Shown piece by piece: positions 11,915 to 53,696 of a DNA stretch of 64,000 bases; position 1 is the stretch's first letter; each line of letters starts with the position of its first letter. The notes under the pieces were generated by a model that saw nothing but the letters and a program-made list of their open reading frames with translations, did no database searches and had not been told where the DNA came from. The stretch covers positions 24,742 to 88,741 of the forward strand of contig JAZRVM010000015.1 of NCBI GenBank assembly GCA_045599205.1. Reading direction: 5' to 3'. The DNA is from Christensenellaceae bacterium (lineage in GTDB: Bacteria > Bacillota > Clostridia > Christensenellales > Borkfalkiaceae). Position numbers and translations under genes: made by a program.

Positions 11915-12011
11915 AAATACTCCATACAATAATCTTTTTAAACATTATAACAAAAAATAAAAAATAAAGCAATATAATTCCAAATTATATTTTATTATAA
12001 CTTTAATTCTC

Positions 12012-12034
12012 AAATTCTCACTGAAAGAGAATTT
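12012..12034. promoter_or_regulatory. inverted repeat (operator-like) just upstream of the XRE-TM promoter
   Basis: aaattctc (12012-12019), 7-nt spacer, gagaattt (12027-12034): perfect 8-bp arms. aattctc is also directly repeated at 12005-12011. Confidence 0.45.
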
Positions 12035-12045
12035 CAAATATTATA

Positions 12046-12074
12046 TTGACAAAATATCCTATAAGCGATATAAT
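12046..12074 (+). promoter_or_regulatory. sigma-A-type promoter, perfect consensus
   Basis: TTGACA (12046-12051), 17-nt spacer, TATAAT (12069-12074), 25 nt upstream of the ATG at 12099. Confidence 0.7.
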
Positions 12075-12098
12075 CATAGAAAAAATAGGAACATAATT

Positions 12099-12689: not shown

Positions 12690-12714
12690 AAGACCGAATA
12701 TTTTCGGTCTTTTT
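12689..12714. terminator. bidirectional intrinsic terminator between convergent genes
   Basis: 10-bp stem aaagaccgaa / ttcggtcttt with loop tatt, and T-runs on both strands. Confidence 0.8.
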
Positions 12715-13392
12715 TTATTCTATCCTCAATTTTCTTAAATAATCCTTTTGGTCATCGGTTATCCTGTAACTTTCGACTGCCTTTTGAATCGTTTTATTAT
12801 GCGTCCACTTGTCAAGAAGCTTATTTTCGAAAACGTAAATTGTACTATCCCATTGTTTTGCAAGCGCAGTAGCATAAAACCATGCAATCATCATATTAAC
12901 GTAATATTCGTCGGATTTAACACTTAAAGGAATTTGCAAAATCTTCTTATTAAAATCGTCGTCAAGGTAAAACGTCATAAGCATTTCAATCGCAAAACGT
13001 ATGGTATAAGTCTTATCGCTTTTAACCCATTGTTCAATTTTTTCAAGCAGTAACTTTTTATCCTTTTTTAATGCCTTGGGACTCATAATATCGCACACCG
13101 CCCAATTATCGACGTATGGCAAAAACTCGTCTAAAAGGTCATAAATTCGGCATATATCCTTCATTTCGGATATTAAAAGAGCGTGAAGCATATTTTCATC
13201 GTAATAAAAATGCGGAAGTATCGATAAAAAACGATTTGATTCTTCATCTGAAATATATTTCTTTGCAAAAGCCCTTAAAACAGGGACTCTAACTCCGATA
13301 AACTTATCTTTATCGATATTAGGTGTCAGTTTTGCCTGAAAATCAGCATAAGTTTTATCGGAAAGCGCAAAAAGGCGATTGATTAAATCCAT
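12715..13392 (-). CDS. DNA alkylation repair protein (AlkD-like HEAT-repeat family)
   Basis: 225 aa. The N-terminus LFALSDKTYADFQAKLTPNIDKDKFIGVRVPVLRAFAKKY is typical of the DNA alkylation repair enzyme family. Confidence 0.75.
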   Translation of the reverse strand: MDLINRLFALSDKTYADFQAKLTPNIDKDKFIGVRVPVLRAFAKKYISDEESNRFLSILPHFYYDENMLHALLISEMKDICRIYDLLDEFLPYVDNWAVCDIMSPKALKKDKKLLLEKIEQWVKSDKTYTIRFAIEMLMTFYLDDDFNKKILQIPLSVKSDEYYVNMMIAWFYATALAKQWDSTIYVFENKLLDKWTHNKTIQKAVESYRITDDQKDYLRKLRIE

Positions 13393-13438
13393 ATTAAACT
13401 ATTTTTAAATGAAATTTTTTCCTTTTAAAATTTTTCTC

Positions 13439-13467
13439 ATTATATCATTTGTTAAAATTGATGTCAA
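13439..13467 (-). promoter_or_regulatory. sigma-A-type promoter, perfect consensus (alkD-like gene)
   Basis: On the minus strand: TTGACA (13462-13467), 17-nt spacer, TATAAT (13439-13444). Confidence 0.65.
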
Positions 13468-13597
13468 GGTAAGATTACCGGCATTGTGCCTACCAAATAA
13501 TTCATATACTATTTCGTTTACGAAAATAAATTAGTAATACAAAAAATCGGCGAAAAACCACACCGTGTTAATAATACACTTCAATACCAATAAAAAA

Positions 13598-14386
13598 TCA
13601 ACTTGCCTTTTTTGTTTTTTTCGTTATATGGAATATACTTTCAATAATAAACGAAACAACCGAAATCAACAAAAACTCTCCGATAATCGAGTACAAAAAC
13701 GGAACGTATTCACCATTACTAACAAAAAATTTCGGCGTAAAAATATCGATAATATTTTTAACAAAAGGAACATCGATAGGAGCAAAAATAATTATCGGGT
13801 TACTCTCTTTAATGAGAGTATAGGCGTTAGACAAAGTTTCGCCCTTAATAAGATAAAAAGTAATCGTGTTGACAAATATCGTCAACTTGAACAATATATA
13901 GTGTGACGGAATCTTATAAAAGTTTTTAATTTTGATTTCGTTAAAGTCAAACAACAAACAAAGCAAATTACAAAACGCCAACAAAAAGTGGCAAACGTAA
14001 TACCGTACGAATTCAATATTATTTATCGACTCCCCTATAAACCAATAAGGAATTGCTATTGCGGCAAATCCCGAAAACATACCGATAATGTTTATGGCTT
14101 CTTTTAACGCACCTTTTTTTAGAATTAAAGAAAGAGGGTTAATGATAATCATCAAGGCGCACATGTTATACGCCGTTTGAATAAGATCGAATTCCTGCCC
14201 GATATACTGGGGCCATATTTTATTTTTTAAAATATGTTGAACAAAATTGAACAACATAAAAATCAAAACAAAAATTTTTTGAACGTAGCGCTTTTTATTT
14301 CTTAACAAAATAAAAGAAATAATCGAAAAGGCTATCGGTAACAAAATCATTAAAATATGAAAAACGTTTCCGTATTGTAAAACCAT
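13598..14386 (-). CDS. polytopic membrane protein (possibly YwaF/TIGR02206-like)
   Basis: 262-aa hydrophobic ORF with SD AAGGAGAAAT before the ATG. The family guess is weak. Confidence 0.7.
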   Translation of the reverse strand: MVLQYGNVFHILMILLPIAFSIISFILLRNKKRYVQKIFVLIFMLFNFVQHILKNKIWPQYIGQEFDLIQTAYNMCALMIIINPLSLILKKGALKEAINIIGMFSGFAAIAIPYWFIGESINNIEFVRYYVCHFLLAFCNLLCLLFDFNEIKIKNFYKIPSHYILFKLTIFVNTITFYLIKGETLSNAYTLIKESNPIIIFAPIDVPFVKNIIDIFTPKFFVSNGEYVPFLYSIIGEFLLISVVSFIIESIFHITKKTKKAS

Positions 14387-14471
14387 ATTTCTCCTTTACC
14401 TTAACCCACAATATCAATATTATGATATATTTTATTCTTCCCTTCTTTTCTTTTTTTATAATTTTTATTAC

Positions 14472-14500
14472 ATTATATCAACAGACTTTGCATCAGTCAA
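14472..14500 (-). promoter_or_regulatory. sigma-A-type promoter for the membrane protein gene
   Basis: On the minus strand: TTGACT (14495-14500), 17-nt spacer, TATAAT (14472-14477). Confidence 0.6.
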
Positions 14501-14779
14501 TAATATTTATGACGAAAAACTCAGATCTCTTGCAATATGGCTAAATTTACGTGTACGACGAAGATCCTGGCGAACTTCAAGCAATTGAACTGCTTGCCGG
14601 CTATTCTTACGACGACCTTGCGGTTATGCTAAACAACAGGTCTTTCCCTGATGGCGTGGACAGTTTTTGGGGAATGCAACTCACATATTTTAGAAAATAC
14701 GGACATGATTACAATTCTATCGTCAAAAAAGTGTCTATTCTTGGAACGGCAGAATATAAAACCGTATAGTAAATAAATA

Positions 14780-15229
14780 AAAACACAAAAAAAGCAAGGC
14801 AAATAAGCATATTCTTGATTAGACGTGGTAAATGTGCGTTCGATAATTAAGTAAGATTTTTCAAAGCCCTTTATAACGTTACCCTTTCCGCCTTCGAAAG
14901 TGCTTATCAAATTGCTTTCGCCGTTTATTGTTTCCGCATCGTTTCCAATAGCGTCTTACGGGGTTAAATATACAGGGAGTTTAGCGTATTCAATACTTAC
15001 TTTTTTGCTTTCTTCTAACGTTGTTTTTCAAGTCATTTGCGGTAAACACAAACGAATCATTAGAAACGTTTGAAAGGTCGATAGAAAGAATTTTTGCGTG
15101 TGCGTAAGCGCTTCGTACCACAACGGAATAAAGCATATCTTCTTTAGTAAAATCATCAACGTATTTTGCTCTACCCGTAACTTTATCCTTTCCGTCTACT
15201 CTTACGATATTTTCACCAAAATATTTCAT
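14780..15229 (-). pseudogene. remnant of a xanthine dehydrogenase / aldehyde oxidoreductase molybdopterin-subunit gene
   Basis: The 79-aa ORF MKYFGENIVRVDGKDKVTGRAKYVDDFTKEDMLYSVVVRSAYAHAKILSIDLS is a classic XDH-family N-terminus but stops early. In another frame I read KVSIEYAKLPVYLTP-stop-DAIGNDAETING...GGKGNVIKGFEKSYLIIERTFTTSNQEYAYL, after which the homology ends. Only about 170 of roughly 750 residues survive, broken by a deletion, a frameshift and an in-frame stop. Confidence 0.75.
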
Positions 15230-15482
15230 AATTTTTCTCCGTTTTTATTATACTTTATTTTAAAAAAAGTCAAATATAAAGACTATAAGATGTTAAAACT
15301 TGTGCCTTTTATAACAATAAACCATTGGTTTTTATTATTAAAAAATTTGCTATAAAAAAGTGCAACGAACTATTTTGGTACTCCCAAAAGAAGCATCTCC
15401 GTTTCGCTACGATGGACTATGTAATCCGTATTAGTCCGTCAACGGCGTCCGAACTCACAGTTCAATTCTTACGTTCGAAAAT

Positions 15483-15514
15483 AAAAACAAAAGCACTGCC
15501 AAACGGCAATGCTT
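15483..15514 (-). terminator. intrinsic terminator after tRNA-Arg
   Basis: As minus-strand RNA: AGCAUUGCC GUUU GGCAGUGCU followed by UUUGUUUUU. Confidence 0.75.
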
Positions 15515-15521
15515 TTTGTTT

Positions 15522-15596
15522 TGGTACTCCCGAGCAGAATCGAACTGCTAATCTTCCCTTAGGAGGGGAAAGTTATATCCATTTAACTACGGAAGC
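15522..15596 (-). tRNA. tRNA-Arg (anticodon CCU)
   Basis: Minus-strand sequence GCTTCCGTAGTTAAATGGATATAACTTTCCCCTCCTAAGGGAAGATTAGCAGTTCGATTCTGCTCGGGAGTACCA folds as a cloverleaf. D stem GTTA/TAAC; anticodon stem TTCCC/GGGAA with loop CTCCTAA; T arm AGCAG-TTCGATT-CTGCT; encoded CCA. The acceptor stem has G1-U72 and U4-G69 wobbles, which is a little unusual. Confidence 0.85.
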
Positions 15597-15623
15597 AAAT
15601 GTTTTATTTAATAAACGCTATAT

Positions 15624-15652
15624 ATTTTACAATATATTATCTTCAAAGTCAA
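15624..15652 (-). promoter_or_regulatory. sigma-A-type promoter for tRNA-Arg
   Basis: On the minus strand: TTGACT (15647-15652), 17-nt spacer, TAAAAT (15624-15629), about 28 nt upstream of the mature tRNA 5' end. Confidence 0.6.
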
Positions 15653-15772
15653 CTCAAAAAATATTTAACGAGTATAATTTTCCATTAAAAAAGAAACAAT
15701 CATATTAAAAGTATAACAATAATTATGAAATAATCATAAATTAAAATAGGATATACTTTTTTTGGAAGAAAT

Positions 15773-16135
15773 ATGATAAAACGCGGAGAATTATATTATG
15801 CAGATTTAAGTCCCGTTGTCGGGAGTGAACAAGGGGGTATAAGACCCATTTTAATCGTTCAAAACGATACGGGAAATAAATATTCTCCAACGGTAATTGC
15901 CGCCGCTGTAACGAGTAAGCTTACCAAGGCAAAACTGCCAACTCACATTGAAATTGCGGCAAACGAATTTGGACTGATTAAAGATTCAGTTATACTTTTG
16001 GAGCAAATACGTACTCTTGACAAAAAAAGATTAAAGGAAAAAATCGGCGAGCTTTCCAAAATTAAAATGAGCAAGGTAAACACCGCCCTGCTCATATCTT
16101 TGGGTTTTAACAATAAAGACGACTCGGTTATATAA
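15773..16135 (+). CDS. mazF: MazF/PemK-family endoribonuclease toxin (EndoA/NdoA-like)
   Basis: 120 aa. [58 protein letters not shown]...[16 protein letters not shown] is near-collinear with B. subtilis EndoA as I remember it. Confidence 0.9.
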
Positions 16136-42324: not shown

Positions 42325-43851
42325 TTATTCTTTTTCCGCAATCTTCATAAGTTCGATAAACACTTGTGCCGTTGCCCTTGCGTCCGACAACGCTCTATGG
42401 TGATTAAAAGAAATATTGAAATTATCCGCCACCGTATCAAGGTCGAATTTTTTTAGCGTCGGCAAAAGTTTTTTAGATAATGCCCACGTGTCGAAAACTT
42501 CGCCCTTTACTTCGTAATCGGCTTCACGTGCAAATTTTTTTATAAAAGAAAGGTCAAATTCTACGTTATGCCCGATAATGGCGCACCCGTCGATAAACTT
42601 CATAAAATCGGGAAGTACCGCCGAAAAGCGTGGTGCGTCCTTTACCATATCGTTTGTTATACCCGTAAGTTCGGTTATCTTTTCGGTTATTATCTTGTCG
42701 GGATTTATAAGCGACGAAAATTGTTCGATGATTTTTCCGTCCCTTATCTTTACCGCACCGACATCCGTTATGTTGTCCTTTAACACTTCAAGCCCCGTGG
42801 TTTCTAAATCGAACGACACGAAATCTCTGCCCATAAACATATCGGGGATTTTCGAGTTTAAGTCAAAAACGCTTTCAACCCTGACACTCTCCGCAGGTTC
42901 GGGAAAAATCAAGTGATAACTTTTCGGTGCAGACTTTTTATAACGGTCTTTCTTTTTGAAATCTTCGGGGAAAGTGCAACGGTTTATCTTGTTAAAGGTA
43001 AACGACGGCGTACCGTTATATTCGCCCATACTGCCCCGTGCGATAATACACTCGCCTTCGGTTATATCTCTTATTTTTTGACACGTCGCTTTTTTGGAAA
43101 AATAAAGTCCGCTAACCCTTCCCGTCGTATCGTCAACGTGGATAATAAAAAACGGTTTACCCGTCTTGGTTTCTTTTTCCACGATTTTGGTAACTCTTCC
43201 GCAAATAACGGCTTCTCCCGACGTAACGTCTTCAATGTATTCCGCCAAATCTCCCATTTGGTCGTCGTCGATTATAACGACGTCCTTAACCCTAATGGTT
43301 CTATGTTCGATTTTTTCAAGTTCGCCTTCGAAAACGTCTTCGGAAAGAATATCGATTATTTCTCCTTCGTCCTTTTGTTCCGTACTCCCCAAGAAGTCGG
43401 AACAAAACTTATGCCTTAAATGTTCGTTGATTTTCGAAATAAGAGAGTTTCTCGTTACGTATTCAATGCCGTCCTTATTAAGTCTTAAAACGTACTTGAC
43501 GTTATCCCCGAACACGTCGCAATTAATATCGGTCTTTTTTAAGAAAATGGATATCGACGGGAAATTGTCTTTTAAGAATTTATAAATCTCGTTACCGCAC
43601 AATTCGTTTTCGGCAACGATTTTTTTTACGGTAATTTCAACGCTCTTGAATACGGGTGCCGTTATTTTTTCGACTTCGCCGAGAATCTTTGATTTTAACT
43701 CGTCGTCAATCGTCTTGTCGCAAATGAAATTATAAGTTACTTTATGCTCGTTTTTCCCGACGACTACGGATGAAATTTTTATTTTATTAAGCCTTTCGTC
43801 TATACTTCGAAGGTCGGACAAAAACTCTGATTCCGTCTTTATCGTATACAT
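42325..43851 (-). CDS. PolC-like N-terminal/OB-fold/DnaQ-type 3'-5' exonuclease protein lacking PHP and polymerase domains
   Basis: 508 aa. Exo motifs FVSFDLETTGLE (ExoI), IIGHNVEFDLSF (ExoII) and HHRALSDARATAQVF (ExoIII). They are preceded by an OB-like segment (AVICGRVTKIVEKETKTGKPFFIIHVDDTTGRVSGLYF...CIIARGSMGEYNGTPSF) that parallels the B. subtilis PolC OB domain from memory. The gene occupies the ispG-polC-rimP slot. Confidence 0.75.
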   Translation of the reverse strand: MYTIKTESEFLSDLRSIDERLNKIKISSVVVGKNEHKVTYNFICDKTIDDELKSKILGEVEKITAPVFKSVEITVKKIVAENELCGNEIYKFLKDNFPSISIFLKKTDINCDVFGDNVKYVLRLNKDGIEYVTRNSLISKINEHLRHKFCSDFLGSTEQKDEGEIIDILSEDVFEGELEKIEHRTIRVKDVVIIDDDQMGDLAEYIEDVTSGEAVICGRVTKIVEKETKTGKPFFIIHVDDTTGRVSGLYFSKKATCQKIRDITEGECIIARGSMGEYNGTPSFTFNKINRCTFPEDFKKKDRYKKSAPKSYHLIFPEPAESVRVESVFDLNSKIPDMFMGRDFVSFDLETTGLEVLKDNITDVGAVKIRDGKIIEQFSSLINPDKIITEKITELTGITNDMVKDAPRFSAVLPDFMKFIDGCAIIGHNVEFDLSFIKKFAREADYEVKGEVFDTWALSKKLLPTLKKFDLDTVADNFNISFNHHRALSDARATAQVFIELMKIAEKE

Positions 43852-44882
43852 TTATCAATCTCACCAAAGAACACCTTTTCGGCGTCTTCTTCCTTTATTT
43901 TTTTCTCTATCTTTCCGTCAATGAAAATAACGCACTCTCCGTTACCGGCACCGGCTATCCCGAGTTTACAATCGCTTGCTTCCCCCGGTCCGTTTACCGC
44001 ACAACCCATGACGGCGATTTTAAGACTTTTCGTTACGTTTTGACAATACGCTTCCACTTTTTTCGCAAACCCCATACAGTCCCACTCACATCTTCCGCAC
44101 GTCGGGCAGGCAACAAGCGTTACCCCCATATCGAACATACCGAGTGCCGACAATATGGCTTTCCCCGCAACGACTTCACGCACGGGATCGGCAGATAAAC
44201 TTACCCTTATCGTATCTCCGATACCACGGCTTAAAAGAGATCCTATGCCGATACTGTTTTTAATTATTCCGTTATATTCCGTTCCCGCTTCCGTTACGCC
44301 CAAGTGAAGGGGATAATCGGTTTTTTTGCTGACGTATTCATACGCTTTTATCATAAGCGGAACGGACGATGCCTTTACTGAAATTACGATATTTTCCACT
44401 CCGTACTTTTCCAAAACGGCAACGTTTTTAAGTGCGCTTTCGCCAAGGGAAATTTCGTTCTTGCCGTATTTACGCAAAAACTCTTTTTCGACGCTTCCGG
44501 TGTTTGCTCCGACACGTACGGGAATACCCCTTTCCTTTAACGCCTTCGCAACTTCTTCAACGTTTTTTTCGTTGCCGATATTTCCCGGGTTAATACGGAT
44601 TTTATCGGCACCCGAAACTATTGAGTCGATTGCGAGTTTATGGTCGAAATGAATATCCGCAACGAGTGGCATATCGGTTTTCTTTTTGAGTTCTTTTATC
44701 GAAAAAGCGTCAAGGCTGTCAAGCACGGAAAACCTTACGATATCACAACCCGCATTTTTTAATTCTTCAATTTGTTTTAACGAATTTTCCGTATCGCAAA
44801 GCCTTGTCGTCGCCATTGATTGAACGGCAATTCTTTCTCCGCCACCGATTACGATATTCCCTATCTTGACTTTCTTACTCAT
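43839..44882 (-). CDS. ispG: 4-hydroxy-3-methylbut-2-enyl diphosphate synthase
   Basis: 347 aa: IAVQSMATT, and CPTCGRC with GCAVNGPGE for the Fe-S cluster. Confidence 0.95.
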   Translation of the reverse strand: MSKKVKIGNIVIGGGERIAVQSMATTRLCDTENSLKQIEELKNAGCDIVRFSVLDSLDAFSIKELKKKTDMPLVADIHFDHKLAIDSIVSGADKIRINPGNIGNEKNVEEVAKALKERGIPVRVGANTGSVEKEFLRKYGKNEISLGESALKNVAVLEKYGVENIVISVKASSVPLMIKAYEYVSKKTDYPLHLGVTEAGTEYNGIIKNSIGIGSLLSRGIGDTIRVSLSADPVREVVAGKAILSALGMFDMGVTLVACPTCGRCEWDCMGFAKKVEAYCQNVTKSLKIAVMGCAVNGPGEASDCKLGIAGAGNGECVIFIDGKIEKKIKEEDAEKVFFGEIDKCIR

Positions 44883-44933: not shown

Positions 44934-44960
44934 TAAAAAAACGCCTTTCGGCGCTTTTAT
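44934..44960 (-). terminator. intrinsic terminator closing the phage-derived block
   Basis: As minus-strand RNA: AAAAGCGCC GAAA GGCGUUUU followed by UUUAUUUU. It sits between the last structural gene (stop at 44979) and the ispG start (44882). Confidence 0.75.
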
Positions 44961-44978
44961 ATTTTTATTAAGTTGTTC

Positions 44979-45884
44979 TTATTCGGGATTTTCCGCAGCG
45001 TTTATTTTATATGCGTAAACAAGGTCGGCGTAATACTCGTCGAGATATACGGCGATTTTCTTTTCGCTTTTAATGTCGTTATAAGCAACCATCGGCGAAA
45101 GAGAATCGTAATACCCGCTTACGCAGGAAATTGCGTCGGAATAATAACCCATATCGATAAGTTCTTCTTTAGAATAACCCGTTTCGTGTACTTGCAAATA
45201 TTTTAATTTTAAGTTCGCATTTATTTCCACCACGCTGTTTTCATATCTCTGCTCTCTCTCGTCGGCGCTGTTATTATACTTGGTTATCGCCAAAACTTTT
45301 TCTTCTTCCTTTTCGTAAAGTTCAATAACCTTTGCGTTTACTTCCGCACTTTCAACTTCTTGGTAATACGTATCGACGCCCGTTATGTCCGCATCGATAC
45401 GAGTTATTTTTGCGTTTATCTCGGAAACGGCGTCGTTAAATTTCGACGTAATTTCGGTAATCTTTGCGTTTTTGTTTTCTTCCGTTTTGGAAAGTTTTTG
45501 AAGGGTAATATCGGAATCCATAATCCCCTTCGACAACGCCTCTTTTTTCATGGCGGAAACGGATTTTGCGTATTCCGACCGAACTGATAAAATTTGTGCG
45601 TCTTTTGCCGTCGTCAATTCGGTTATCTTGTTTTGAAGTGCGCTTTTTTCCGCCGTTAGACTTTCCTTCCGCTTTAACCGTCTTTCTTTTTGTGCGCCAC
45701 ATAAAAGCGACGTCGCTTTCGAAATCAATTCGTTTTGCGTCGGCGCCGTGTAAGTTAACCGTTCGATATTAAGCGGTGTTATTACGGTGTTTTCGTACTC
45801 GAATTTACGAAGCCTATAATACGAGAAAATATCTCTTAACGTTTCATACATTTCTTCCTTTGTCGTTGGAACTGTAAAATCCAT
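44979..45884 (-). CDS. phage-block protein with long central coiled coil (needle/plug-like?)
   Basis: 301 aa with a heptad-rich central region (KESLTAEKSALQNKITELTTAKDAQILSVRSEYAKSVSAMKKEAL...). Last gene of the block, 2 nt after the preceding stop. Confidence 0.7.
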   Translation of the reverse strand: MDFTVPTTKEEMYETLRDIFSYYRLRKFEYENTVITPLNIERLTYTAPTQNELISKATSLLCGAQKERRLKRKESLTAEKSALQNKITELTTAKDAQILSVRSEYAKSVSAMKKEALSKGIMDSDITLQKLSKTEENKNAKITEITSKFNDAVSEINAKITRIDADITGVDTYYQEVESAEVNAKVIELYEKEEEKVLAITKYNNSADEREQRYENSVVEINANLKLKYLQVHETGYSKEELIDMGYYSDAISCVSGYYDSLSPMVAYNDIKSEKKIAVYLDEYYADLVYAYKINAAENPE

Positions 45885-45886
45885 AA

Positions 45887-47098
45887 TTATCTCCTATAAA
45901 AAAGTTTTATTTTTTCTATACCGAAATTTTTTGAATCGCCTCTGACTTTTATCGTAAACAGCCTTGAATTTAAAAAAGCCTTTATTTCGTTTTCGCCACT
46001 ACGTAACTTATACTCTTTTAAACCGAAATCACCCGATACCGTCATTATGCAATCCGCATCGACTTCAACGATTATTTTATAGACGAATTTTTTGCCGTCG
46101 CAATTTAACGCCAAGCCCGACGCCTTATAAACGGATTCGCCATCACCTAAAAGATATACCTTGCCGTTTTTGTCCATAAAAATTCCTTTGCCGATATATT
46201 TTAAGCACGAATTTTCTTCGTACGGTTTTACGTAATACGTGTCCTTTGTATTTACGTCGTAAATTAAAAATTTCTCGCCGATATCGTCTTTGATTTTTAC
46301 GACGTACTTGCCTAAATAATTCGACGCCCAGTCCGTAACGACGTAATCTTTCTCCCCTTTTTGGCAGGCACTTTCGTTTTCTCCCGTTAGCGACGTAAGA
46401 CAATTCGAACGGATAAAGTAAACCTTTCCGTCAATCGTGGTAAGTGATTTTTCGTTGATATCCACAACCGACGTATCAAGAGTCGTTACGATAAAATCTT
46501 CACACGAATATTTCGCCGTTATCTTTTTGATTTTCGTTTTTGTCAAAGCGTACAAAACGTCGTCCACCGCAAACAACAATCGAATTTCGTCGCCGAAGTC
46601 TATTTCCCCTTCTTTTTCTATTTCTTCGCCGTCTAAAACGAGTTTGGAAAACAAAAGTTTTTGACCGTGCGAGCAAAAAATTCGCCCAGCAAAATACGTG
46701 TAATTCTTCCCATCGAATATCTTTTTATATTGAAGTCCTTTCCCAAGCATAACGCACTTACCGTTACCGCAAACGGATATTACTTCTTCGCCCTTATACT
46801 TAAAGTTAAAAAGGTTTGGGGGACGTAAAAACCCACCTGAAACGAGAATCATTGCTCCGCCTTCTAATCGGTAAAGATTGCCGTCCGCACAAAAGACGTA
46901 CGTTTTATCCGATACCGTGTAAGATTTTTTTATCTCCGAATTTTTATGCGTATCGAAAGCATAACGAAGCCCCTTCGTTCCGACCACCTTTTTGGGTTTT
47001 ATTAAGCACGAATAACTCTCTTTCGAAACAGACAAAAAATCATTAACGTTATAAAAAAGTTCTTTTTCTTTTTTAAACCTAAACATAGGAATTGCCAT
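45887..47098 (-). CDS. phage-block protein with repeated beta-propeller-like blades (tail hub/nozzle-like?)
   Basis: Recurrent blade-like motifs: ADGNLYRLEGG, VDDVLYALTKT, IDGKVYFIRSN, KNGKVYLLGDG. The ATG at 47096-47098 (MAIPMFRF) lies 9 nt after AGGAG and forms a TAATG stop-start overlap. The track start at 47107 is too close to the SD. Confidence 0.7.
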   Translation of the reverse strand: MAIPMFRFKKEKELFYNVNDFLSVSKESYSCLIKPKKVVGTKGLRYAFDTHKNSEIKKSYTVSDKTYVFCADGNLYRLEGGAMILVSGGFLRPPNLFNFKYKGEEVISVCGNGKCVMLGKGLQYKKIFDGKNYTYFAGRIFCSHGQKLLFSKLVLDGEEIEKEGEIDFGDEIRLLFAVDDVLYALTKTKIKKITAKYSCEDFIVTTLDTSVVDINEKSLTTIDGKVYFIRSNCLTSLTGENESACQKGEKDYVVTDWASNYLGKYVVKIKDDIGEKFLIYDVNTKDTYYVKPYEENSCLKYIGKGIFMDKNGKVYLLGDGESVYKASGLALNCDGKKFVYKIIVEVDADCIMTVSGDFGLKEYKLRSGENEIKAFLNSRLFTIKVRGDSKNFGIEKIKLFYRR

Positions 47099-47670
47099 TA
47101 AAACCATCTCCTTTCTTTGGTCGTGGAGTTTTTCGGCGGAATTAAAGACGTAACGGCGTCGGAGTATCTTTTTCTAAACGTAAGACTTTCGCTGAAAGCG
47201 TGTCTTGTCAGGTACACTTCCGCAACGACGCCGAGTGCCAAAACTTCGGCGGTTATTTTTTGTTCGCTGAAATCGATATTGTCAAAAAGTCCACAGTTCG
47301 ACGGAACAAAAGCGTAAACGATTTTCGCAGGAAATTCCTTTAAGACAATTTGAGTCGTGTTCGACGTGTACTTTACTTCTTCGCCCTTGTCGTTATAAAC
47401 GCCGAAAATCTTTATAAGTCTTTCGCCCAACTCGGTATAAGTTATTTTCTCTTTTTCGATTTGTTCTTCCTTTATCATCGGCACGAAAGAAGTTGCAAGT
47501 TCGGAAATAACGACGTTAGCGCATCTCGTATAAGTGTCGATAAGCGAAAGCGTGGAATTATCTGATGCGTCGCTAATATCGTTCGTGTCGGTTACTTCAT
47601 TTAGATAAGCAATAACTTCTTCATCTCCGAGATAGGTTGCTGAAATCTTTATAATATCTTTTATGGTCAT
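47098..47670 (-). CDS. phage-block protein (head completion/adaptor-like by position)
   Basis: 190-aa ORF immediately after the capsid gene hairpin, with SD AAGGGGAAACT before the ATG. No family recognised. Confidence 0.7.
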   Translation of the reverse strand: MTIKDIIKISATYLGDEEVIAYLNEVTDTNDISDASDNSTLSLIDTYTRCANVVISELATSFVPMIKEEQIEKEKITYTELGERLIKIFGVYNDKGEEVKYTSNTTQIVLKEFPAKIVYAFVPSNCGLFDNIDFSEQKITAEVLALGVVAEVYLTRHAFSESLTFRKRYSDAVTSLIPPKNSTTKERRWF

Positions 47671-47679
47671 AGTTTCCCC

Positions 47680-47714
47680 TTAAAAATACGGGGGCGTCGA
47701 AATTAAACGCCCCC
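47680..47714 (-). terminator. GC-rich hairpin plus U-tract directly after the capsid gene (partial terminator)
   Basis: On the minus strand: GGGGGCGT TTAATTTCG ACGCCCCC, then GTATTTTTAA. Arms are at 47690-47697 and 47707-47714. Confidence 0.65.
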
Positions 47715-47746
47715 ATACCCTAAATTATTTTTTTGTTTTTATACTT

Positions 47747-48922
47747 TTACGCTTCGGTAATTCCCGTCAAAACGCCTTGACCACATGGTCTACTGCAAAT
47801 AATGTCGGCATATTTTACAAGAGTTGCCGTGTAAACAGGTTTACCTGCTACTTGCTTTAATACCTTACCGTCGTCGCCTTCAAGCCATTGCCAGTCGCAA
47901 AGTTGGTGCATAGCAAAGTCGTTCGTGTTAAGAAGGTACATTGTTCCGTCAGGACAGAATCTGTCTGCAACGACAGGGATACCGTTATAACTTAACGCTT
48001 TGTATCCGCCTTCCAAATCCATAGTGTCAACGAAACGTTTGTTTTGGCTGAACAAGTTTTGCAAAGCACGTCTTACACCCCAAGAACAAACGATAAAGTT
48101 AGTGTTAGAGCCACTTTGTTCTTCAATAGCGTCGAGTGCCTTTTGAATCTTTGCTTCGGTAATACTGCCTATACTCGTACCGATATACGGAACAAGCCAA
48201 GGGTGAGTTGATTTACTTAACCCGTAGATAGTACCCGTTGACGAAAAGATTGCACCGAGTCCGGTTATTTCGTTATTATACGAACCTTGAACGGTTGCGA
48301 TAACACCTGACGTGATATCTGTTGAAGTGAGCGTTGTACCGCTTACCGTAACCGTTTTATTCGTTCTGTCAACGGCTAAAACCTTTCTTCCCGTTGCACC
48401 GGTAATTGCCGTTCCGTCAGACGCTCTGAAATCAATCAACATACCTTCGATAAAGTTTTTTACCGAGTCGAAAGTAATAACGCCGTTTGAAATAGAAGCA
48501 ACCGTGCCGAGTTTACCCGTACCGTCGCCGTAAAGCATTCTGCCGAAGTTAAAAGAACTTGCTTTAAGCAAGCCTTCCATTTCGGAATTGAGTAAACTTA
48601 CAAAAGCCCCCGAATTGTTTTCCGACGCTCTGATTGCCTTGTCGGAAATTTCTATCGTGCCGTAAAGGTTTTTAAGCGGTAAAACGAATTGTTCGTAGCT
48701 GTTGCCCGTAGCGTCAGGGAGCGAACCGTCTTCCGTACCCGCACCGACGCCACCGTTCATACCGTAAATAGCAAGTTTTCTTACTTCCTTGCCCCATACG
48801 TCGTCAGACGTTTGTTTTATCATCGATAAAAGCGGGTTTGCGTTTTTGTTGAGTTGTTCGGCGACAACGTCAAGATAATATGATTTAAGCGCCTTGTCTG
48901 CGCTCGTTAATGTTATTGCCAT
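47747..48922 (-). CDS. phage major capsid protein (probable HK97 fold)
   Basis: 391 aa, positioned after the scaffold-like gene. The N-terminus MAITLTSADKALKSYYLDVVAEQLNKNANPLLSMI and overall style resemble annotated phage major capsid proteins (from memory). SD is AAGGAAG. Confidence 0.7.
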   Translation of the reverse strand: MAITLTSADKALKSYYLDVVAEQLNKNANPLLSMIKQTSDDVWGKEVRKLAIYGMNGGVGAGTEDGSLPDATGNSYEQFVLPLKNLYGTIEISDKAIRASENNSGAFVSLLNSEMEGLLKASSFNFGRMLYGDGTGKLGTVASISNGVITFDSVKNFIEGMLIDFRASDGTAITGATGRKVLAVDRTNKTVTVSGTTLTSTDITSGVIATVQGSYNNEITGLGAIFSSTGTIYGLSKSTHPWLVPYIGTSIGSITEAKIQKALDAIEEQSGSNTNFIVCSWGVRRALQNLFSQNKRFVDTMDLEGGYKALSYNGIPVVADRFCPDGTMYLLNTNDFAMHQLCDWQWLEGDDGKVLKQVAGKPVYTATLVKYADIICSRPCGQGVLTGITEA

Positions 48923-48942
48923 AAATTACTTCCTTATATTTT

Positions 48943-49461
48943 CTATTTGGACAAAAACATTGCCTTGACGAGATTTCCCGCCTCGGTAATGCTTTTCGGC
49001 TTGTCCGTCGGAGCTTTCACGCCAACCCCGACGCCGTCCATAATCACAGCCTTTTGTTTGTTCGACAAAACTTCCTTTAAGTACTCTTTCAAAATCTCGT
49101 CTTTGTTTTGCGACGCAATTTCTTCTTGGGTTTTACTTAAATTGTTTTCATCTTCTCCCAAAGATACGTTAGGAGCGGTTTCAGTTGTCGCTTGGGTAAA
49201 ATCGGTAACGTTTTCCTTCGACGTACCGTCGTTTACACCGATAAGCGATTGATTCGCTTTATCTAAATTTATCTTCCCCTCCAACTCTTTTAGTCGCTGA
49301 CTGCGTTTGGTAAATTCAGCTTCTAAACTGTTGTACGCATTAAGTAGGGCGTTAACGTCCTTAAACTTACCTAATGAGAGCAAGCCCTCTTTTTCGCCCA
49401 AAACCTTCTCTGCCTCCGCAGTTTGCGATACGGGCTTGTTTTGTTCTTCGTTTTCGTTCAT
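48943..49461 (-). CDS. phage scaffolding-like protein
   Basis: 172 aa, acidic and helical/coiled-coil, between the portal and capsid genes. Strong SD GGGAGG. Confidence 0.6.
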   Translation of the reverse strand: MNENEEQNKPVSQTAEAEKVLGEKEGLLSLGKFKDVNALLNAYNSLEAEFTKRSQRLKELEGKINLDKANQSLIGVNDGTSKENVTDFTQATTETAPNVSLGEDENNLSKTQEEIASQNKDEILKEYLKEVLSNKQKAVIMDGVGVGVKAPTDKPKSITEAGNLVKAMFLSK

Positions 49462-49479
49462 GTTTTTCCTCCCGATATT

Positions 49480-51336
49480 TTATTTACTTACACTTTCTTC
49501 AAGTTTGTTAAGTTTTTCTTTATGCTCTTTTACGTGAGAAAAGAGCCTTGTTTTTTCTTCTTCCGTCAACTCGGCGTATTCACTTAAAATATACCTTACG
49601 TGTTCGTCAACGTGTATTTTATGATTATCGATTTCTTCAACCTGCAAGCCGTTTTTCCGTATCGTCATATTTTCCGACTGTGCCTTTTCTTCGTGAAGTC
49701 TTGACAACCCTTTTTGATAATCCAAATCGTTATAACCGAGAAGGGATAATACCTTTTCTTTGGTTGCAGGGTGCAAATTTCCGTCTTCGGCATTTAACAA
49801 CCCGCTATTATAAAGTTTGAGTATCATTTCCTTTTTTTGGCTCGGCGTATAGATAAGTTCGTTTTCGCTTTCAAGGTAAACGTCGTCGTTACGACAAACG
49901 CTTTTGTCGATATAACCTATTTTGGTTTTGTTCGAGTTATCCTGATATTTAATAAGTTTTATTCCGCTTAAAAATTGACAATAAAGGTGAAGAACCTTTT
50001 TCGATACACCCAAAAAACAGTTTCTTATATTGTCCGCAACGATGGTCATTCTTTCGTTATCTTGGTCAACTAAAAGCGAAAGCGCACTACCACTTGAAAG
50101 CCTTGCGTTTTCGTTCGACGACGAAACGTCGCTTACACCGCTTATTTGCACGAATTCGGCGAGTAATTTATTTTCTTCCTCGTCAAAGTCGGGCGGAATG
50201 GTACCGTTAGCCATCATTTCGGGAACTTTCGCCCCCTGTCTATACACCAAAACCTTCCCCGGTGATAGACCGTCGGTCGATAAATCTTCTACGTCAACCG
50301 ACCCGTCTTCGACGGTTAAAATTCCGCTCGTAAGCCTATTCATAAATTCCTGTTTCCTATTCTTAACGGCGTTAAAAGCACGTTGAACGGGAATAAGCCT
50401 TTCGATAATGCTTGTCCCGAAAAAATTTCCCGGCAGTACTACCGACTTTTGCATAACGAAAGGCAAGAATCTTTTATTATCGTTGCCGTAATAATACGGA
50501 AGGTCGCCGTAGTATAAAAGTTTTCCGCCACAGACGGTAATCAATCTTCCGAGCGGATACTCCTTCGACGGCATCTCGTATTTTTCTATCACGATTTGAG
50601 AATTAACAAGCGTCGATTCGGTTTTTTTCTCCTTTAACTCGTTTTGCTTTGAAAAAGAGTAAACGTCGTATTCTTCCCCTACAAGCGAAACGCCGTATTT
50701 TTCTTTTATCGTTTCGACGTCAAGTATTTGTGCGTGAATAATGCTCTTGCAATTTTCAACGTCGTCACAATAAAGATTATCGGGAAAAACTTCGTAAGGA
50801 GAAACGGGAACAATCTTTACGTCGCCTTCGTAAACGTTTTTACCGTCTACGTCCCCCACAAGTTCGCCACCCATATTGTTCCATACGATTTTGTAAAAAC
50901 CCGTACCGCACGTTTCACTCCACGCAGTAACCTTTTTTACCACTTCGGTAAAGCCGTTACGCTTAAAACTTTCCGCAATAAGTCTTTCGGCAAGCGATGC
51001 ACTTGCAACGTCAACGTCGTCGTCGGAAGCAGGTCTTACGGAAACTTTCGGTGTTACTCTCGAAAATTTTGCCGACCTTGTTTCCATAATCGGCGCAATA
51101 TGATTGAATACCATATTTTTTTGCCAAAAAAATTCTTTGTCGGTCGGCATAATTTCTCCGCTATTCGACAGATAACAATACTGATTTCCGTTAAGAAAAT
51201 TCATATTGAGTTCCCATTGTCTATCAAGCGTTTTGCGCTTGTTTCGTCTTGCTTCGAAATCCGCCGTAACTTCGTTAATAAGTTCGTTTACGTAACGCTC
51301 CCGTTCTACGTCTTGTTTTTTTCTATTTTTTTCCAC
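49480..51336 (-). CDS. phage portal protein
   Basis: About 618-638 aa, directly after the terminase region. The N-terminal RRNKRKTLDRQWELNMNFLNGNQYCY segment is portal-like. The track start (51396) is a TTG. GTG at 51334-51336 lies 6 nt after AGGAG and overlaps the upstream ORF by 14 nt, so I prefer it. The start remains uncertain. Confidence 0.7.
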   Translation of the reverse strand: MEKNRKKQDVERERYVNELINEVTADFEARRNKRKTLDRQWELNMNFLNGNQYCYLSNSGEIMPTDKEFFWQKNMVFNHIAPIMETRSAKFSRVTPKVSVRPASDDDVDVASASLAERLIAESFKRNGFTEVVKKVTAWSETCGTGFYKIVWNNMGGELVGDVDGKNVYEGDVKIVPVSPYEVFPDNLYCDDVENCKSIIHAQILDVETIKEKYGVSLVGEEYDVYSFSKQNELKEKKTESTLVNSQIVIEKYEMPSKEYPLGRLITVCGGKLLYYGDLPYYYGNDNKRFLPFVMQKSVVLPGNFFGTSIIERLIPVQRAFNAVKNRKQEFMNRLTSGILTVEDGSVDVEDLSTDGLSPGKVLVYRQGAKVPEMMANGTIPPDFDEEENKLLAEFVQISGVSDVSSSNENARLSSGSALSLLVDQDNERMTIVADNIRNCFLGVSKKVLHLYCQFLSGIKLIKYQDNSNKTKIGYIDKSVCRNDDVYLESENELIYTPSQKKEMILKLYNSGLLNAEDGNLHPATKEKVLSLLGYNDLDYQKGLSRLHEEKAQSENMTIRKNGLQVEEIDNHKIHVDEHVRYILSEYAELTEEEKTRLFSHVKEHKEKLNKLEESVSK

Positions 51337-51637
51337 TTTTTTCTCCTTCACGTTCTTCCCACAACTCGTCAAGTAAACGCTTCCTTTCAAATTCAAGTTC
51401 TTCGTCGGTATATTCCGACAAAGGCGTTTCGACGTCTTCGTCTATCAACATTTTAAGTGCCGACAGGTCGGGTGGAACGTTTTTTACAGTTACTTTTTTC
51501 TTATTCAGTTTTATTTCTCCGCCATCATCACTCGAATACTCCTCAACCGTTTCGACGGTATCAAAGCCAAGTGCCTTTTTTACGATTGCCTGTTTTAACT
51601 TTTCGGGATTAACCCCGTTAACCGTTTCTTCGTTCAT
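51323..51637 (-). CDS. small acidic phage-block protein (possible truncated small-terminase-like protein)
   Basis: 104 aa, overlapping the TerL stop by 20 nt. The segment KKALGFDTVETVEEYSSDDGGEIKLNKKKVTVKNVPPDLSALKML weakly recalls the C-terminal half of some small terminases (from memory). No N-terminal HTH is visible. Confidence 0.5.
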   Translation of the reverse strand: MNEETVNGVNPEKLKQAIVKKALGFDTVETVEEYSSDDGGEIKLNKKKVTVKNVPPDLSALKMLIDEDVETPLSEYTDEELEFERKRLLDELWEEREGEKSGKK

Positions 51638-53063
51638 AAAGTATCTTTTTTATTAGTCGCTCCTTGTCTTTTTGGACAGCAGTCTTAACGGATTTTATCT
51701 CGTTTCGGTGCGGTCTTGTCATAAGATAATAGCGAAGTTCGTCGAGTGCGTGATCGTCGATTTTTTTAGGATTATCGCCAACTCCCCACCTATAACTTTT
51801 AAGCTCCCGTATTAAATTCACGCAGGACTTAAAAATGTATAAATCGGGTTTGCCGTTTTTCTTGTTAAGATATTCCTTTACTCTTTCTATCCCCGAAAAA
51901 ATTTCCTTGTTGACGTTTGGGTTTACGGCTATGCCGTTTTCGAAAAACAGTTCGGTAACCGAACGCATACCGCCCAAAGTTTTTTGGTTCGCAGCGCTGT
52001 CGATAAGTGCTTCGATTTTCCCGTCGTATCTTCTTTTCCACTTTAATTCGTCGCTGATGCGTTTTATATCGTTTGAGTGATGCTCGATATCTTGTTGCGC
52101 CAAAAAATGCTCCGCAACGACGTAAACGTTGTCGTCGTAATCAACTGCGTACCAGTGGCACGAAAGAGGATTATTAAGCCCCGGGTCTATGGACAAACAG
52201 TCCTGCCACTCGGGCGGGACGTCAAACGGCTCGATAACGTGAACGTTCTCGTCAAACTCCGGATAAACAAGTCCGAAGTCGCTTCTAAACCGTCCGTACT
52301 TTCTGCTTTCAAGTTGGTCGTCTGATAAACTGCGAGATAAAACGTTTATCTCGTCTTTATCGAGATACGGGTTGTCGTCCCAGTTCATAAACTCATACCA
52401 CACTTCGGGATTGTTTCCTTTATTTAGGTATATTTCGTCGTACACGTAAGTAAGTCCTTTAAGCGGAGTCATCGTGCCGAAAATATCGCCACGCTTATCA
52501 ATAACACGCATTAAACATTCTTCATAAATATCTTTCGGCGGTTCTTCGTCAAACCACACGAAATCAAGTGAACTGCCTTGAAATTTTTCTCTGCCCTGAT
52601 CGCATGACTTAAAACCGATAACCGATTTCCCACCGAAAACGTTTTTAATTACGATTTGGTCTATGACGCCGTACGATAAACTGTCCTTTTTGCCCGACAG
52701 CATCGTTACGTCTAATATCCACTCGGGATTAAGATACGAAAGTATTTTTGCCTGTGCGACGTCTCTTTGAACTTGCGTCGAAAGGGAAACAACCCAGCCG
52801 AACGTGTCCTTTCGGTTTTGTCGGTATGGGTGAATCCCACGAGAAATATAAACCGTTTCGACAGCCCCGCACTCGGTCTTTCCGCTTCGATTTCCACCGA
52901 AGACCCAACGGTTTCGCTTTTGGCACTTATGAAATTCAAGTTGCTTTTTATGTATCTTTTCGCCCGTGTTGTACTCGGAAAGCTTGCTCGGCGCACTTCG
53001 TCTGTTTTTTTCGTCGATTATTTCAAGTAATCTCGTTACTCTTTTTTTGTCTTCGCTAATCAT
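51618..53063 (-). CDS. phage terminase large subunit
   Basis: 481 aa: Walker A FGGNRSGKTE, Walker B/catalytic LDFVWFDEEP, and a C-terminal RNaseH-like nuclease part (SIDPG..., IDSAANQ, DDHALDELRY). Confidence 0.85.
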   Translation of the reverse strand: MISEDKKRVTRLLEIIDEKNRRSAPSKLSEYNTGEKIHKKQLEFHKCQKRNRWVFGGNRSGKTECGAVETVYISRGIHPYRQNRKDTFGWVVSLSTQVQRDVAQAKILSYLNPEWILDVTMLSGKKDSLSYGVIDQIVIKNVFGGKSVIGFKSCDQGREKFQGSSLDFVWFDEEPPKDIYEECLMRVIDKRGDIFGTMTPLKGLTYVYDEIYLNKGNNPEVWYEFMNWDDNPYLDKDEINVLSRSLSDDQLESRKYGRFRSDFGLVYPEFDENVHVIEPFDVPPEWQDCLSIDPGLNNPLSCHWYAVDYDDNVYVVAEHFLAQQDIEHHSNDIKRISDELKWKRRYDGKIEALIDSAANQKTLGGMRSVTELFFENGIAVNPNVNKEIFSGIERVKEYLNKKNGKPDLYIFKSCVNLIRELKSYRWGVGDNPKKIDDHALDELRYYLMTRPHRNEIKSVKTAVQKDKERLIKKILYERRNG

Positions 53064-53070
53064 CGCAGTG

Positions 53071-53112
53071 ATTATATGTATCTTTTTTATAAATGGAATA
53101 CGTAAATGACAA
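53071..53112 (-). promoter_or_regulatory. promoter region of the phage-derived block
   Basis: On the minus strand: TTGTCA (53107-53112), 17 nt, TAAAAA (53084-53089). There is also a perfect TATAAT (53071-53076) only 7 nt upstream of the TerL ATG. No Shine-Dalgarno sequence is visible. Confidence 0.5.
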
Positions 53113-53130
53113 GAGAAAGAAAATTTTTTT

Positions 53131-53163
53131 AAAACAAAAAAAGCGACGGGATTTCCATCGCTT
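53131..53163 (-). terminator. intrinsic terminator after ppiB
   Basis: On the minus strand: AGCGATGG AAAT CCCGTCGCT followed by TTTTTTTGTTTT. Confidence 0.75.
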
Positions 53164-53180
53164 TAAGTTGATTTTCTTTG

Positions 53181-53696
53181 TTAAGCTTTATCGGGTTCGC
53201 CGTATTCCTCGCCGAAAGTATCGACAGTCATTACTTTTATCTTCATATCCTTTATCGGTCTGTCGGAATAATCGGTGTCGGTATTTGCAATATAGTCAAG
53301 CGTATCAAACCCGTCGATAAGTTTTCCAAAGCCTGCATATTCCCCATCGAGATACGGTGCGTCTTCGTGCATAATGAAAAATTGCGAACCGCCGGAATTC
53401 GGGTGCATTGCCCTTGCCATAGATAAAACGCCACGAACGTGCTTTAAGTCGTTTTTAAAATGATTTGAGTTAAACTCTCCCTTAATCGTGTAACTGGGGC
53501 CACCCATACCGTTTCCGTCAGGGCAACCGCCTTGAATCATAAACCCGCTTATTACCCTATGAAAAATAAGCCCGTTATAAAAACCTTTGTTGATTAAAGA
53601 TATAAAATTTTTAACCGTATTCGGGGCAATTTCGGGATATAATTCGGCAGTCATAACCTTGCCGTCTTCCATTTCGATTTTAACTTGTGGATTCAT
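53181..53696 (-). CDS. ppiB: cyclophilin-type peptidyl-prolyl cis-trans isomerase
   Basis: 171 aa: FHRVISGFMIQGGCP, GVLSMARA, GSQFFI. Confidence 0.9.
   Translation of the reverse strand: MNPQVKIEMEDGKVMTAELYPEIAPNTVKNFISLINKGFYNGLIFHRVISGFMIQGGCPDGNGMGGPSYTIKGEFNSNHFKNDLKHVRGVLSMARAMHPNSGGSQFFIMHEDAPYLDGEYAGFGKLIDGFDTLDYIANTDTDYSDRPIKDMKIKVMTVDTFGEEYGEPDKA

Follow-up and report, generated by a model that had tools for sequence, protein, structure and literature searches.

A podovirus-derived head-and-neck operon in Christensenellales, probably part of a domesticated gene-transfer-agent-like viriform

The stretch of DNA analyzed here, 64,000 nucleotides long and called the window throughout, comes from a Christensenellaceae bacterium (contig JAZRVM010000015.1 of assembly GCA_045599205.1, positions 24,742 to 88,741 of the forward strand). 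On its minus strand, between ispG and the gene of a cyclophilin-type peptidyl-prolyl isomerase (PPIase), it carries a phage-derived block of eight intact and tightly packed genes (window 44979-53063, 8085 bp). This operon encodes the full DNA-packaging head set, namely the large terminase (TerL), the portal and the capsid protein, together with at least one component of a short tail. It is probably the head-and-neck part of a domesticated, podovirus-derived "viriform" that resembles a gene transfer agent (GTA) and is vertically inherited in the Christensenellales. The original prediction, which was made from the letters of the window, had left three options for the block: a GTA-like particle, a capsid-forming satellite, or another exapted function of a capsid. 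Profile searches, a fold search, synteny and selection support this interpretation; among the three, the GTA-like option fits best and is favored, and the satellite is disfavored.

Gene content and boundaries of the operon

All eight open reading frames (ORFs) are present and intact on the minus strand where they had been predicted, and their coordinates reproduce the tight packing described before: the TerL gene overlaps the second gene by 20 nt, the second gene overlaps the portal gene by 14 nt, the 190-amino-acid (aa) gene and the nozzle gene share a TAATG, and a gap of 2 nt lies between the nozzle gene and the 301-aa gene. The first gene encodes TerL (481 aa, 51618..53063, minus strand), a protein with both ATPase and nuclease parts that matches PF03237 (1.5e-10) and phrog_2 (1.4e-32). 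Its Walker A motif (G56-T63), Walker B motif (L166-E174), GTMTP segment (196-200) and the residues D293, D355, D437 and D441 are conserved at 89-100% per position among 73 homologues, in which the Walker motifs and the nuclease end quoted in the original prediction are invariant or nearly so, and 142 of the 481 positions are at least 98% conserved. The portal (49480..51336, minus strand) is assigned by P22_portal PF16510 (7.6e-16), SU10_portal PF23899 and phrog_156 (7.6e-39). Its ORF is open as far as TTG 51396; a GGAG Shine-Dalgarno sequence precedes GTG 51336, and a start at this GTG yields a protein of 618 aa and the 14-nt overlap with the 104-aa gene. The major capsid protein (391 aa, 47747..48922, minus strand) is of the podovirus (SU10-like) type and matches NF033394 capsid_maj_Podo (3.2e-88), phrog_14242 (2.7e-67) and SU10_MCP PF17236. 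The three folds on which the prediction depended, those of terminase, portal and capsid, were thus all recovered by profile searches. An encapsulin was also considered and set aside, given that a portal and a terminase are present. One argument of the prediction does not hold, namely that a capsid protein of ~390 aa implies a large capsid: it is the T number and not the chain length that sets capsid size, and the ~40 nm heads of FpGTA, the podovirus-like, split-locus GTA of Faecalibacterium prausnitzii, hold ~8.5 kb (PMC12946183, Nat Commun 2026).

The short-tail component is the product of the seventh gene, a tail nozzle or hub of 403-406 aa (45887..47098/47107, minus strand). It was recognized from an AlphaFold2 (AF2) model that was built from a three-row alignment, is mostly beta-strand and has a mean predicted local distance difference test score (pLDDT) of 55.6. 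In a Foldseek search of the PDB with this model, the top 22 matches are all podovirus tail or portal-tail complexes, including the Pa223 tail (1.5e-11), P22 gp10 (8eap_D, 4.2e-9), Pan3, VP1, SU10, Pam1, GP4 and T7 gp12, and the matches in BFVD are repeatedly named "Bacteriophage P22, Gp10" (1e-13 to 1e-9). The fold search supports what had been proposed as a P22 gene-10-like protein, now as a predicted nozzle of the P22 gp10/T7 gp12 type, and at template modeling (TM) scores of 0.28-0.45 this is an assignment to a fold class. The nozzle is also the fastest-diverging gene of the operon, with ~20% identity to its positional homologues, and a homologue search with the 403/406-aa protein at E<=1e-5 returned only itself; a profile made from 27 positional homologues retrieved three proteins, hence the three rows of the alignment. 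In one relative (L101:11791-13036, which is the same as L023; numbers with L are our locus labels) the gene is split into ORFs of 118 aa and 306 aa, which may reflect either a frameshift that would have cost this lineage the function, or an error of assembly.

The protein encoded directly upstream of the nozzle gene (190 aa, 47098..47670, minus strand) is a probable head-to-tail adaptor with a gp4-type role. Weak matches in its family point to this role: 5 of 42 members match phrog_2377 "head-tail adaptor Ad1" (best 1.7e-4) and 1 of 42 matches phrog_442. The second-best match of the family profile in the PDB is 9k09_d "Tail tubular protein A" (E 0.46, not significant), and Foldseek returned nothing for a query that was a poor single-sequence AF2 model (pLDDT 47). 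The last gene of the operon (301 aa, 44979..45884, minus strand) encodes a DUF7934 protein (PF25588, 6e-10), the central region of which is of low complexity and, by eye, helical in appearance. Its family yields no consistent match in PHROG or the PDB, and the protein is possibly a plug, fiber or needle, the last being the coiled-coil role that the original prediction had proposed. In sequence and profile searches of the PDB, the 190-, 406- and 301-aa families obtained non-significant matches only.

Two small acidic proteins complete the operon. The first (104 aa, pI 4.6, 51323..51637, minus strand) is conserved in every variant at its place between TerL and portal, is present in 81 loci and is 46-59% identical to its positional homologues. 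It has no family match in Pfam, PHROG and NCBIfam profile searches, and is possibly a factor similar to the small terminase (TerS) or one associated with the portal. The second (172 aa, 48943..49461, minus strand) lies between the portal and capsid genes. Profile searches give it no family match; homologues of 136-236 aa match it in the N- and C-terminal parts but not in the middle, and this pattern together with its position points to a scaffold. The P22-like order 2-1-8-5-4-10-26 that was read into the operon therefore stands in part: TerL, the P22-type portal, the gp10-type hub and the lack of a protease agree with it, the scaffold agrees by position, and gp4- and gp26-like roles for the 190-aa and 301-aa proteins are putative.

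The block is flanked by ispG (43839-44882) and the PPIase gene (53181-53696), and past ispG follow the gene of a 508-aa PolC-N-terminal/exonuclease protein, rimP, nusA and infB. A terminator-like hairpin (53140..53164, minus strand, 10-bp stem and then a T run) ends the PPIase gene and divides it from the operon. The clean terminator claimed for the block is found as a second hairpin (44937..44958, minus strand, 9-bp stem and then a T run) that closes the operon upstream of ispG. A repeat search of the two flanks found no direct repeat joining them, as had been stated. Profile searches of the eight block proteins gave zero matches to protease, tail-tube, tape-measure, baseplate, tailspike, holin and endolysin families. 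No integrase or other phage gene was found in the 64-kb window, where the flanking and uncharacterized proteins scanned belong to cellular families and the remaining genes are housekeeping genes by eye. The sole tRNA gene of the window is ~29 kb away from the block. These scans agree with the earlier account of missing integrase, protease, tail and lysis families; the statement that there is nothing to adsorb or lyse holds for this window only, and the published analogue FpGTA has such genes at a second locus.

Relatives, descent and selection

More than 6400 homologues of the capsid protein were found at E<=1e-10, and clustering at the 50% level leaves 466 clusters below 1e-30. The top 120 homologues are 70-84% identical to it and come from metagenome-assembled genomes (MAGs) of Clostridia, on contigs of up to 675 kb. 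When one genome per species was scanned, relatives appeared in at least 585 species-representative genomes, some of them MAGs from animal and human gut; the best 80 of the genomes are Christensenellaceae, Christensenella, Candidatus Borkfalkia or unclassified Clostridia/Bacillota gut MAGs, except three titled Acidiphilium. The loci that we inspected share a similar series of genes and fall into three layouts after the capsid gene. In type A, the layout of the window, genes for proteins of ~186, 410 and 298 aa follow; type B has extra genes, for which tblastn found no match in the window, and type C is the layout of Borkfalkia-like genomes. Operons of both type A and type B end with the DUF7934 gene. 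In at least 20 species ispG comes directly after the type A operon, and then the gene of a ~510-aa PolC-N protein, rimP, nusA, ylxR and infB, an arrangement identical to that of the window. The upstream side is variable: many genomes have a conserved trio of genes there, and in others, as here, TerL lies directly beside host genes, which include MATE/thyA/folA, parE/parC and GH106. Housekeeping genes are the neighbors in the related loci inspected, and no integrase was found in the six of them that were annotated with Pfam. The original prediction had allowed that homologues might occur only within complete prophages; the close homologues lie instead among housekeeping genes, and they do so in many species. 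IMG/VR contains 76 relatives, and most of those with at least 47% identity are short pieces of this chromosomal operon. Two IMG/VR sequences with 56-59% capsid identity (L014:720-16250 and L017) have TerL, portal, scaffold and capsid genes; downstream of the capsid gene no adaptor or nozzle was detected in them, and methyltransferase-, helicase- and LexA-like genes are present instead.

More distant relatives have larger gene sets. At 54-58% capsid identity (L110, L114) the series goes on past the nozzle with proteins of ~800 and ~680 aa, and at 46-48% (L140, L149 and Maliibacterium massiliense) the gene sets are larger and more phage-like. In the cultured M. massiliense, for which the genome is complete (L167; LR026983.1, 2215459-2236634), proteins of 807 and 704 aa flank the DUF7934 gene. 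Proteins of the DUF7934 family also occur in these larger sets, by a Pfam match in Maliibacterium and by profile matches in L140 and L149. Relatives with a capsid identity of 32% or less are located on phage contigs of 30-60 kb, and the nearest INPHARED capsid proteins, most of them from cultured actinobacteriophages, are only 25-31% identical. Type A thus appears to be the most reduced member of a series that begins with complete podoviruses. The extra large genes after the nozzle in L110, L114, M. massiliense, L140 and L149 would also suit the structural half of an active temperate phage with its other modules beyond the 64-kb window or on another contig. Such a phage is, however, highly improbable, since housekeeping genes with their own terminators stand on both sides of the operon and the junctions are tight in many species with different upstream neighbors; we also know of no life style based on a split, trans-acting phage genome.

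Conservation was compared in 18 genomes that share the ispG junction. Mean pairwise identity is 0.735 for TerL, 0.695 for the capsid protein, 0.574 for the portal, 0.36 for the 190-aa protein and 0.36 for the DUF7934 protein, against 0.691 for ispG, 0.749 for nusA and 0.578 for the PolC-N protein on the flank. TerL and the capsid protein are about as conserved as the flanking ispG and nusA, whereas adaptor, nozzle and DUF7934 protein change much faster. The ratio of nonsynonymous to synonymous substitution rates (dN/dS) was computed over three close genomes at dS of 0.4-1.9. It is 0.035-0.042 for TerL, 0.084-0.091 for the portal, 0.10-0.17 for the capsid gene and 0.04-0.15 for the 104-aa gene; the remaining genes have values of 0.27-0.38 (scaffold), 0.28-0.35 (adaptor), 0.25-0.34 (nozzle) and 0.11-0.20 (DUF7934), and the host flanks 0.03-0.05 (ispG) and 0.06-0.07 (nusA). 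All eight genes of the operon are therefore below 0.4, and their dS is in the range of the host flanks. The composition of the block is also close to that of the host: its distance in relative synonymous codon usage (RSCU) is 0.177, compared with 0.154 ± 0.033 for host 8-kb blocks, 16 of 56 windows have a larger tetranucleotide distance than the block, and its GC content is 41%, compared with 39% for host genes. It had been noted by eye that the block shares a CG-rich codon style with its neighbors; codon and tetranucleotide usage are indeed in the range of the neighbors, but the genome is AT-rich (~39% GC). The prediction had also left room for a strain-specific copy under relaxed selection, and this does not agree with the low dN/dS and with an ispG junction found in so many species. 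Identity, dN/dS, motifs and composition together are the signature of an old, fixed and functional element; a prophage of recent date, a mobile island or a remnant in decay would look different.

This pattern bears directly on two other explanations. An inert prophage remnant with surviving ORFs would explain why the block contains only part of the genes of a phage and why the nozzle gene is split in L023/L101. It is scarcely credible in view of eight ORFs that are intact here and in dozens of species, of dN/dS values of 0.04-0.38 at a divergence that would have erased a neutral copy, and of the many nearly invariant TerL positions; moreover, dN/dS near 1 or frequent frameshifts and stops were looked for across the relatives and not seen. 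A capsid-forming satellite, similar to a capsid-forming phage-inducible chromosomal island (cf-PICI), would have lost its integrase, replication and regulation genes or keep them elsewhere, and would use the tails of a helper phage. According to Alqurainy et al. in 2023, cf-PICIs reportedly have terminase, portal and capsid genes of their own but borrowed tails, and the operon in the window is likewise without tail fiber or lysis genes. Nevertheless a satellite is very unlikely. The integrase, alpA/stl-like regulation, replication genes and insertion at attachment (att) repeats that mark a cf-PICI are not seen in the window or in the inspected loci, and fixation beside ispG in at least 20 species at the dS of host genes is unlike a mobile island, as is the host-like composition. 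The operon also encodes its own nozzle, and thus has no need of a helper tail of the siphovirus or myovirus type.

Promoter, proposed mechanism and other features of the window

The block had been credited with its own promoter region, but a consensus scan calls no sigma-70-type promoter in 53064-53139. What can be read there is a putative activator-dependent promoter (53071..53112, minus strand) with a GTCATT box (53110-53105), a weak -35 element TTCCAT (53098-53093) and a TATAAT (53076-53071). Because the TATAAT ends 7 nt before the ATG of TerL and no Shine-Dalgarno sequence is present, the TerL transcript may be leaderless. By eye, a G(T/A)CATA box is located 8-10 nt upstream of sigma-A-like -35/-10 elements in ten species in which the operon lies beside host genes (L030, L031, L037, L044, L054, L067, L068, L075, L079, L093), and such a box together with the -35/-10 elements would fit an activator-dependent promoter. 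Sporulation-sigma promoters were considered for the GTCATA box as well and rejected on spacing, again by eye. The trio upstream of TerL in most genomes (e.g., L006:1304-5827, L004:1910-5900, L001:4245-5485) consists of a ~840-aa membrane-anchored protein, a 160-180-aa phage-type activator and a divergent ~247-aa protein with hydrophobic, membrane-anchor-like stretches at its N- and C-termini. Of the 26 members of the 160-180-aa family, 12 match phrog_36 "transcriptional regulator" and 7 match phrog_248 "transcriptional activator." This activator, encoded next to most of the operons, is the obvious candidate for binding the box, although we propose it tentatively.

From gene content, selection and the precedent of FpGTA we infer that host DNA would be packaged into small short-tailed particles. 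A host signal, probably acting through a phage-type late activator encoded outside the window, would turn on the activator-dependent promoter, and portal, scaffold and capsid protein would assemble into procapsids in a protease-free manner. TerL, perhaps with the 104-aa protein, would then fill them by headful packaging of host DNA without sequence specificity, after which the 190-aa adaptor and the nozzle would shut the portal, and the DUF7934 protein would plug or extend it. Receptor-binding and lysis proteins would be supplied from another locus, as in FpGTA, and the released particles would bring short random chromosome fragments to related cells.

A domesticated capsid may also be useful in other ways, such as killing or lysing competitors without DNA delivery in a PBSX-like manner, export or protection of DNA (extracellular DNA, stress survival), or as a phage decoy. 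Selection and synteny show only that the operon is useful and not what it is for, the window holds no receptor-binding or lysis genes, and the authors of the FpGTA study themselves leave delivery versus a PBSX-like role open (PMC12946183). We nevertheless consider such uses unlikely. TerL is the most constrained gene of the operon and keeps all ATPase and nuclease motifs, so that DNA packaging appears central; PBSX-type killing needs a contractile tail, which is absent here; and the fast divergence of nozzle, adaptor and DUF7934 protein would be expected of components in contact with a cell surface that itself changes. A GTA-like element that delivers DNA remains the reading that we prefer.

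Three further observations concern the rest of the window. The 508-aa protein encoded past ispG (42325-43851, minus strand) has the PolC N-terminal and DEDD-exonuclease parts only, and matches positions 418-589 of the 1445-position PolC model; full-length polC occupies the interval between ispG and rimP in many Bacillota. The gene is not a truncated one but stands alone in its own right, because it is conserved at 507-519 aa in at least 20 species, with 42-58% identity to the copy in the window and dN/dS of 0.05-0.09. A region of low GC content (11000-16000, 30-33% compared with ~39% elsewhere) contains genes for an Xre-type helix-turn-helix membrane protein, a DNA-alkylation-repair-like protein and a TMEM164-like protein, and tRNA-Arg(CCT) (15522-15596). 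Finally, nearly all genes in window 1-64000, those of the phage-derived operon among them, lie on the minus strand, and the cumulative GC skew decreases almost monotonically. Co-orientation with replication is probable for the window as a whole.

Comparison with known systems

The closest published parallel is FpGTA, and a literature search found no further paper that describes the element or DUF7934. Few GTAs have been described, most of them from Alphaproteobacteria, and FpGTA is the first podovirus-like one (2024 preprint, 2026 paper; PMC12946183). The ten ORFs of its operon I (10.5 kb) comprise genes for a TerS-like protein, TerL, portal, scaffold and capsid as well as for conserved hypothetical proteins, among them one assigned to PDB 8eap as "tail nozzle," and operon II, ~125 kb away, encodes fiber, receptor-binding protein, holin and endolysin (PMC12946183). 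The element is near-ubiquitous in its host genus and is supported by electron microscopy (EM), proteomics and ~9 kb DNA; the particles are ~40 nm in size, look tailless and contain 8.4-8.9 kb of random host DNA, and the authors infer a podovirus-like form and leave open whether the particles deliver DNA or act like PBSX (PMC12946183). The two operons are alike in the order of TerL, portal, scaffold-position protein and capsid, followed by small and medium proteins that include a nozzle matched to 8eap. Neither operon is reported to have a tail tube, tape measure or integrase gene, and the last protein of the FpGTA operon is labeled by NCBI "cell envelope biogenesis protein TolA." They differ in host, which belongs to the Oscillospirales for FpGTA and to the Christensenellales for the window, in gene number (ten ORFs with a putative TerS, versus eight with no TerS identified) and in the scaffold-position protein, which is labeled Prp-like in FpGTA whereas the 172-aa protein is without a match.

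Several points weigh against reading the operon as a GTA-like element. FpGTA is documented by EM, proteomics and packaged DNA and its second operon is known, whereas the locus in the window and its Christensenellales homologues are known from genes alone, with particles, packaging and transfer deduced from them. Small terminase, receptor-binding protein, holin and endolysin were not found in the window, and a second locus is assumed by analogy; the trio with the activator and its two neighbors is absent from the window by tblastn. The nozzle model is of low confidence, the matches behind the adaptor are weak, and the plug, needle or fiber role of the DUF7934 protein is conjectural. Distances of the module and of the host flanks correlate strongly over the 18 genomes (Mantel r = 0.83, with 0 of 5000 permutations as high), but a few close pairs drive this value, the per-gene Spearman coefficients are only 0.16-0.40, and the flanking "host" genes used as a reference are physically linked to the operon. 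Lastly, the FpGTA capsid protein (RCH50849.1) is labeled "N4-gp56 family," whereas the capsid protein of the window belongs to NF033394 capsid_maj_Podo, a comparison made by family label. The N4-gp56 family matched neither the window capsid protein (E<=0.1) nor 29 diverse relatives (E<=0.01), all of which match NF033394. The two operons may hence be independent domestications, and the behavior of one is not simply transferable to the other.

GTA-like packaging has also been reported in Christensenellaceae MAGs from reads of virus-like particles of human stool, with peaks at 4.07 and 7.07 kb for HGM11616 and a main peak at 6.3 kb for QANA01; a candidate GTA operon was identified only in Faecalibacterium, so that the Christensenellaceae signal was left without a locus (PMC12946183). 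The operon in the window is a concrete candidate for this signal, and the operon alone measures 8085 bp compared with the published packaged lengths of ~4.1-7.1 kb (PMC12946183). A variant of the preferred reading, which we hold to be doubtful, goes further and regards the operon as a self-sufficient minimal podovirus-like GTA kept order-wide. In this variant it would be the locus behind the 4-7 kb signal, the nozzle and the DUF7934 protein would be the sole adsorption device with no fiber operon, and the element would be independent of FpGTA, with a different capsid family. If the capsid families truly differ, gut Clostridia acquired short-tailed GTAs on more than one occasion, which would bear on how common capsid-mediated gene flow is in the microbiome. 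More generally, our results suggest that a short-tailed capsid operon is maintained as a core-like trait, passed on vertically, in a second large order of gut anaerobes.

Among phages, P22 has the same order of terminase, portal, scaffold, coat and portal-closing proteins and likewise no prohead protease, and its portal family and gp10 fold match the proteins of the window. It differs in having gene 3 (TerS), the tailspike gp9 and ejection proteins, none of which is in the block, in its coat type as opposed to the SU10/"Podo" capsid, and in being a mobile temperate phage as opposed to a fixed, host-like block. The nearest capsid proteins of cultured phages (25-31% identity) belong to actinobacteriophage podoviruses of the type of Microbacterium phage Shocker (MW507126). 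The TerL and portal profiles match strongly in these phages, and the nozzle profile matches gene 33 of Shocker (2e-4), which adjoins gene 32 "tail tube protein" in the same order as in the window; however, they are lytic phages with complete genomes of ~45 kb, in which lysis, replication and very large tail genes are all present, and they are distant in sequence. RcGTA of the Alphaproteobacteria is a phage-derived cluster that is vertically inherited under purifying selection, is not self-transmissible, has adsorption and lysis genes elsewhere and is expressed under host control. Its form is that of a siphovirus: it has a protease, a tail tube and a tape measure, and its HK97-type capsid protein undergoes cleavage in maturation. 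RcGTA shares vertical inheritance and purifying selection with the operon in the window, but is unrelated in sequence and from a different phylum. Set against these systems, the operon combines the head and neck of P22, namely terminase, P22-type portal, protease-less scaffold by position and gp10-type hub, with the gene order of FpGTA from TerL through portal, scaffold and capsid to neck genes that include a gp10-like nozzle. As in a GTA, phage structural genes lie in the host chromosome without integration, replication or immunity genes and without att sites, and they are vertically inherited, under purifying selection and host-like in composition.

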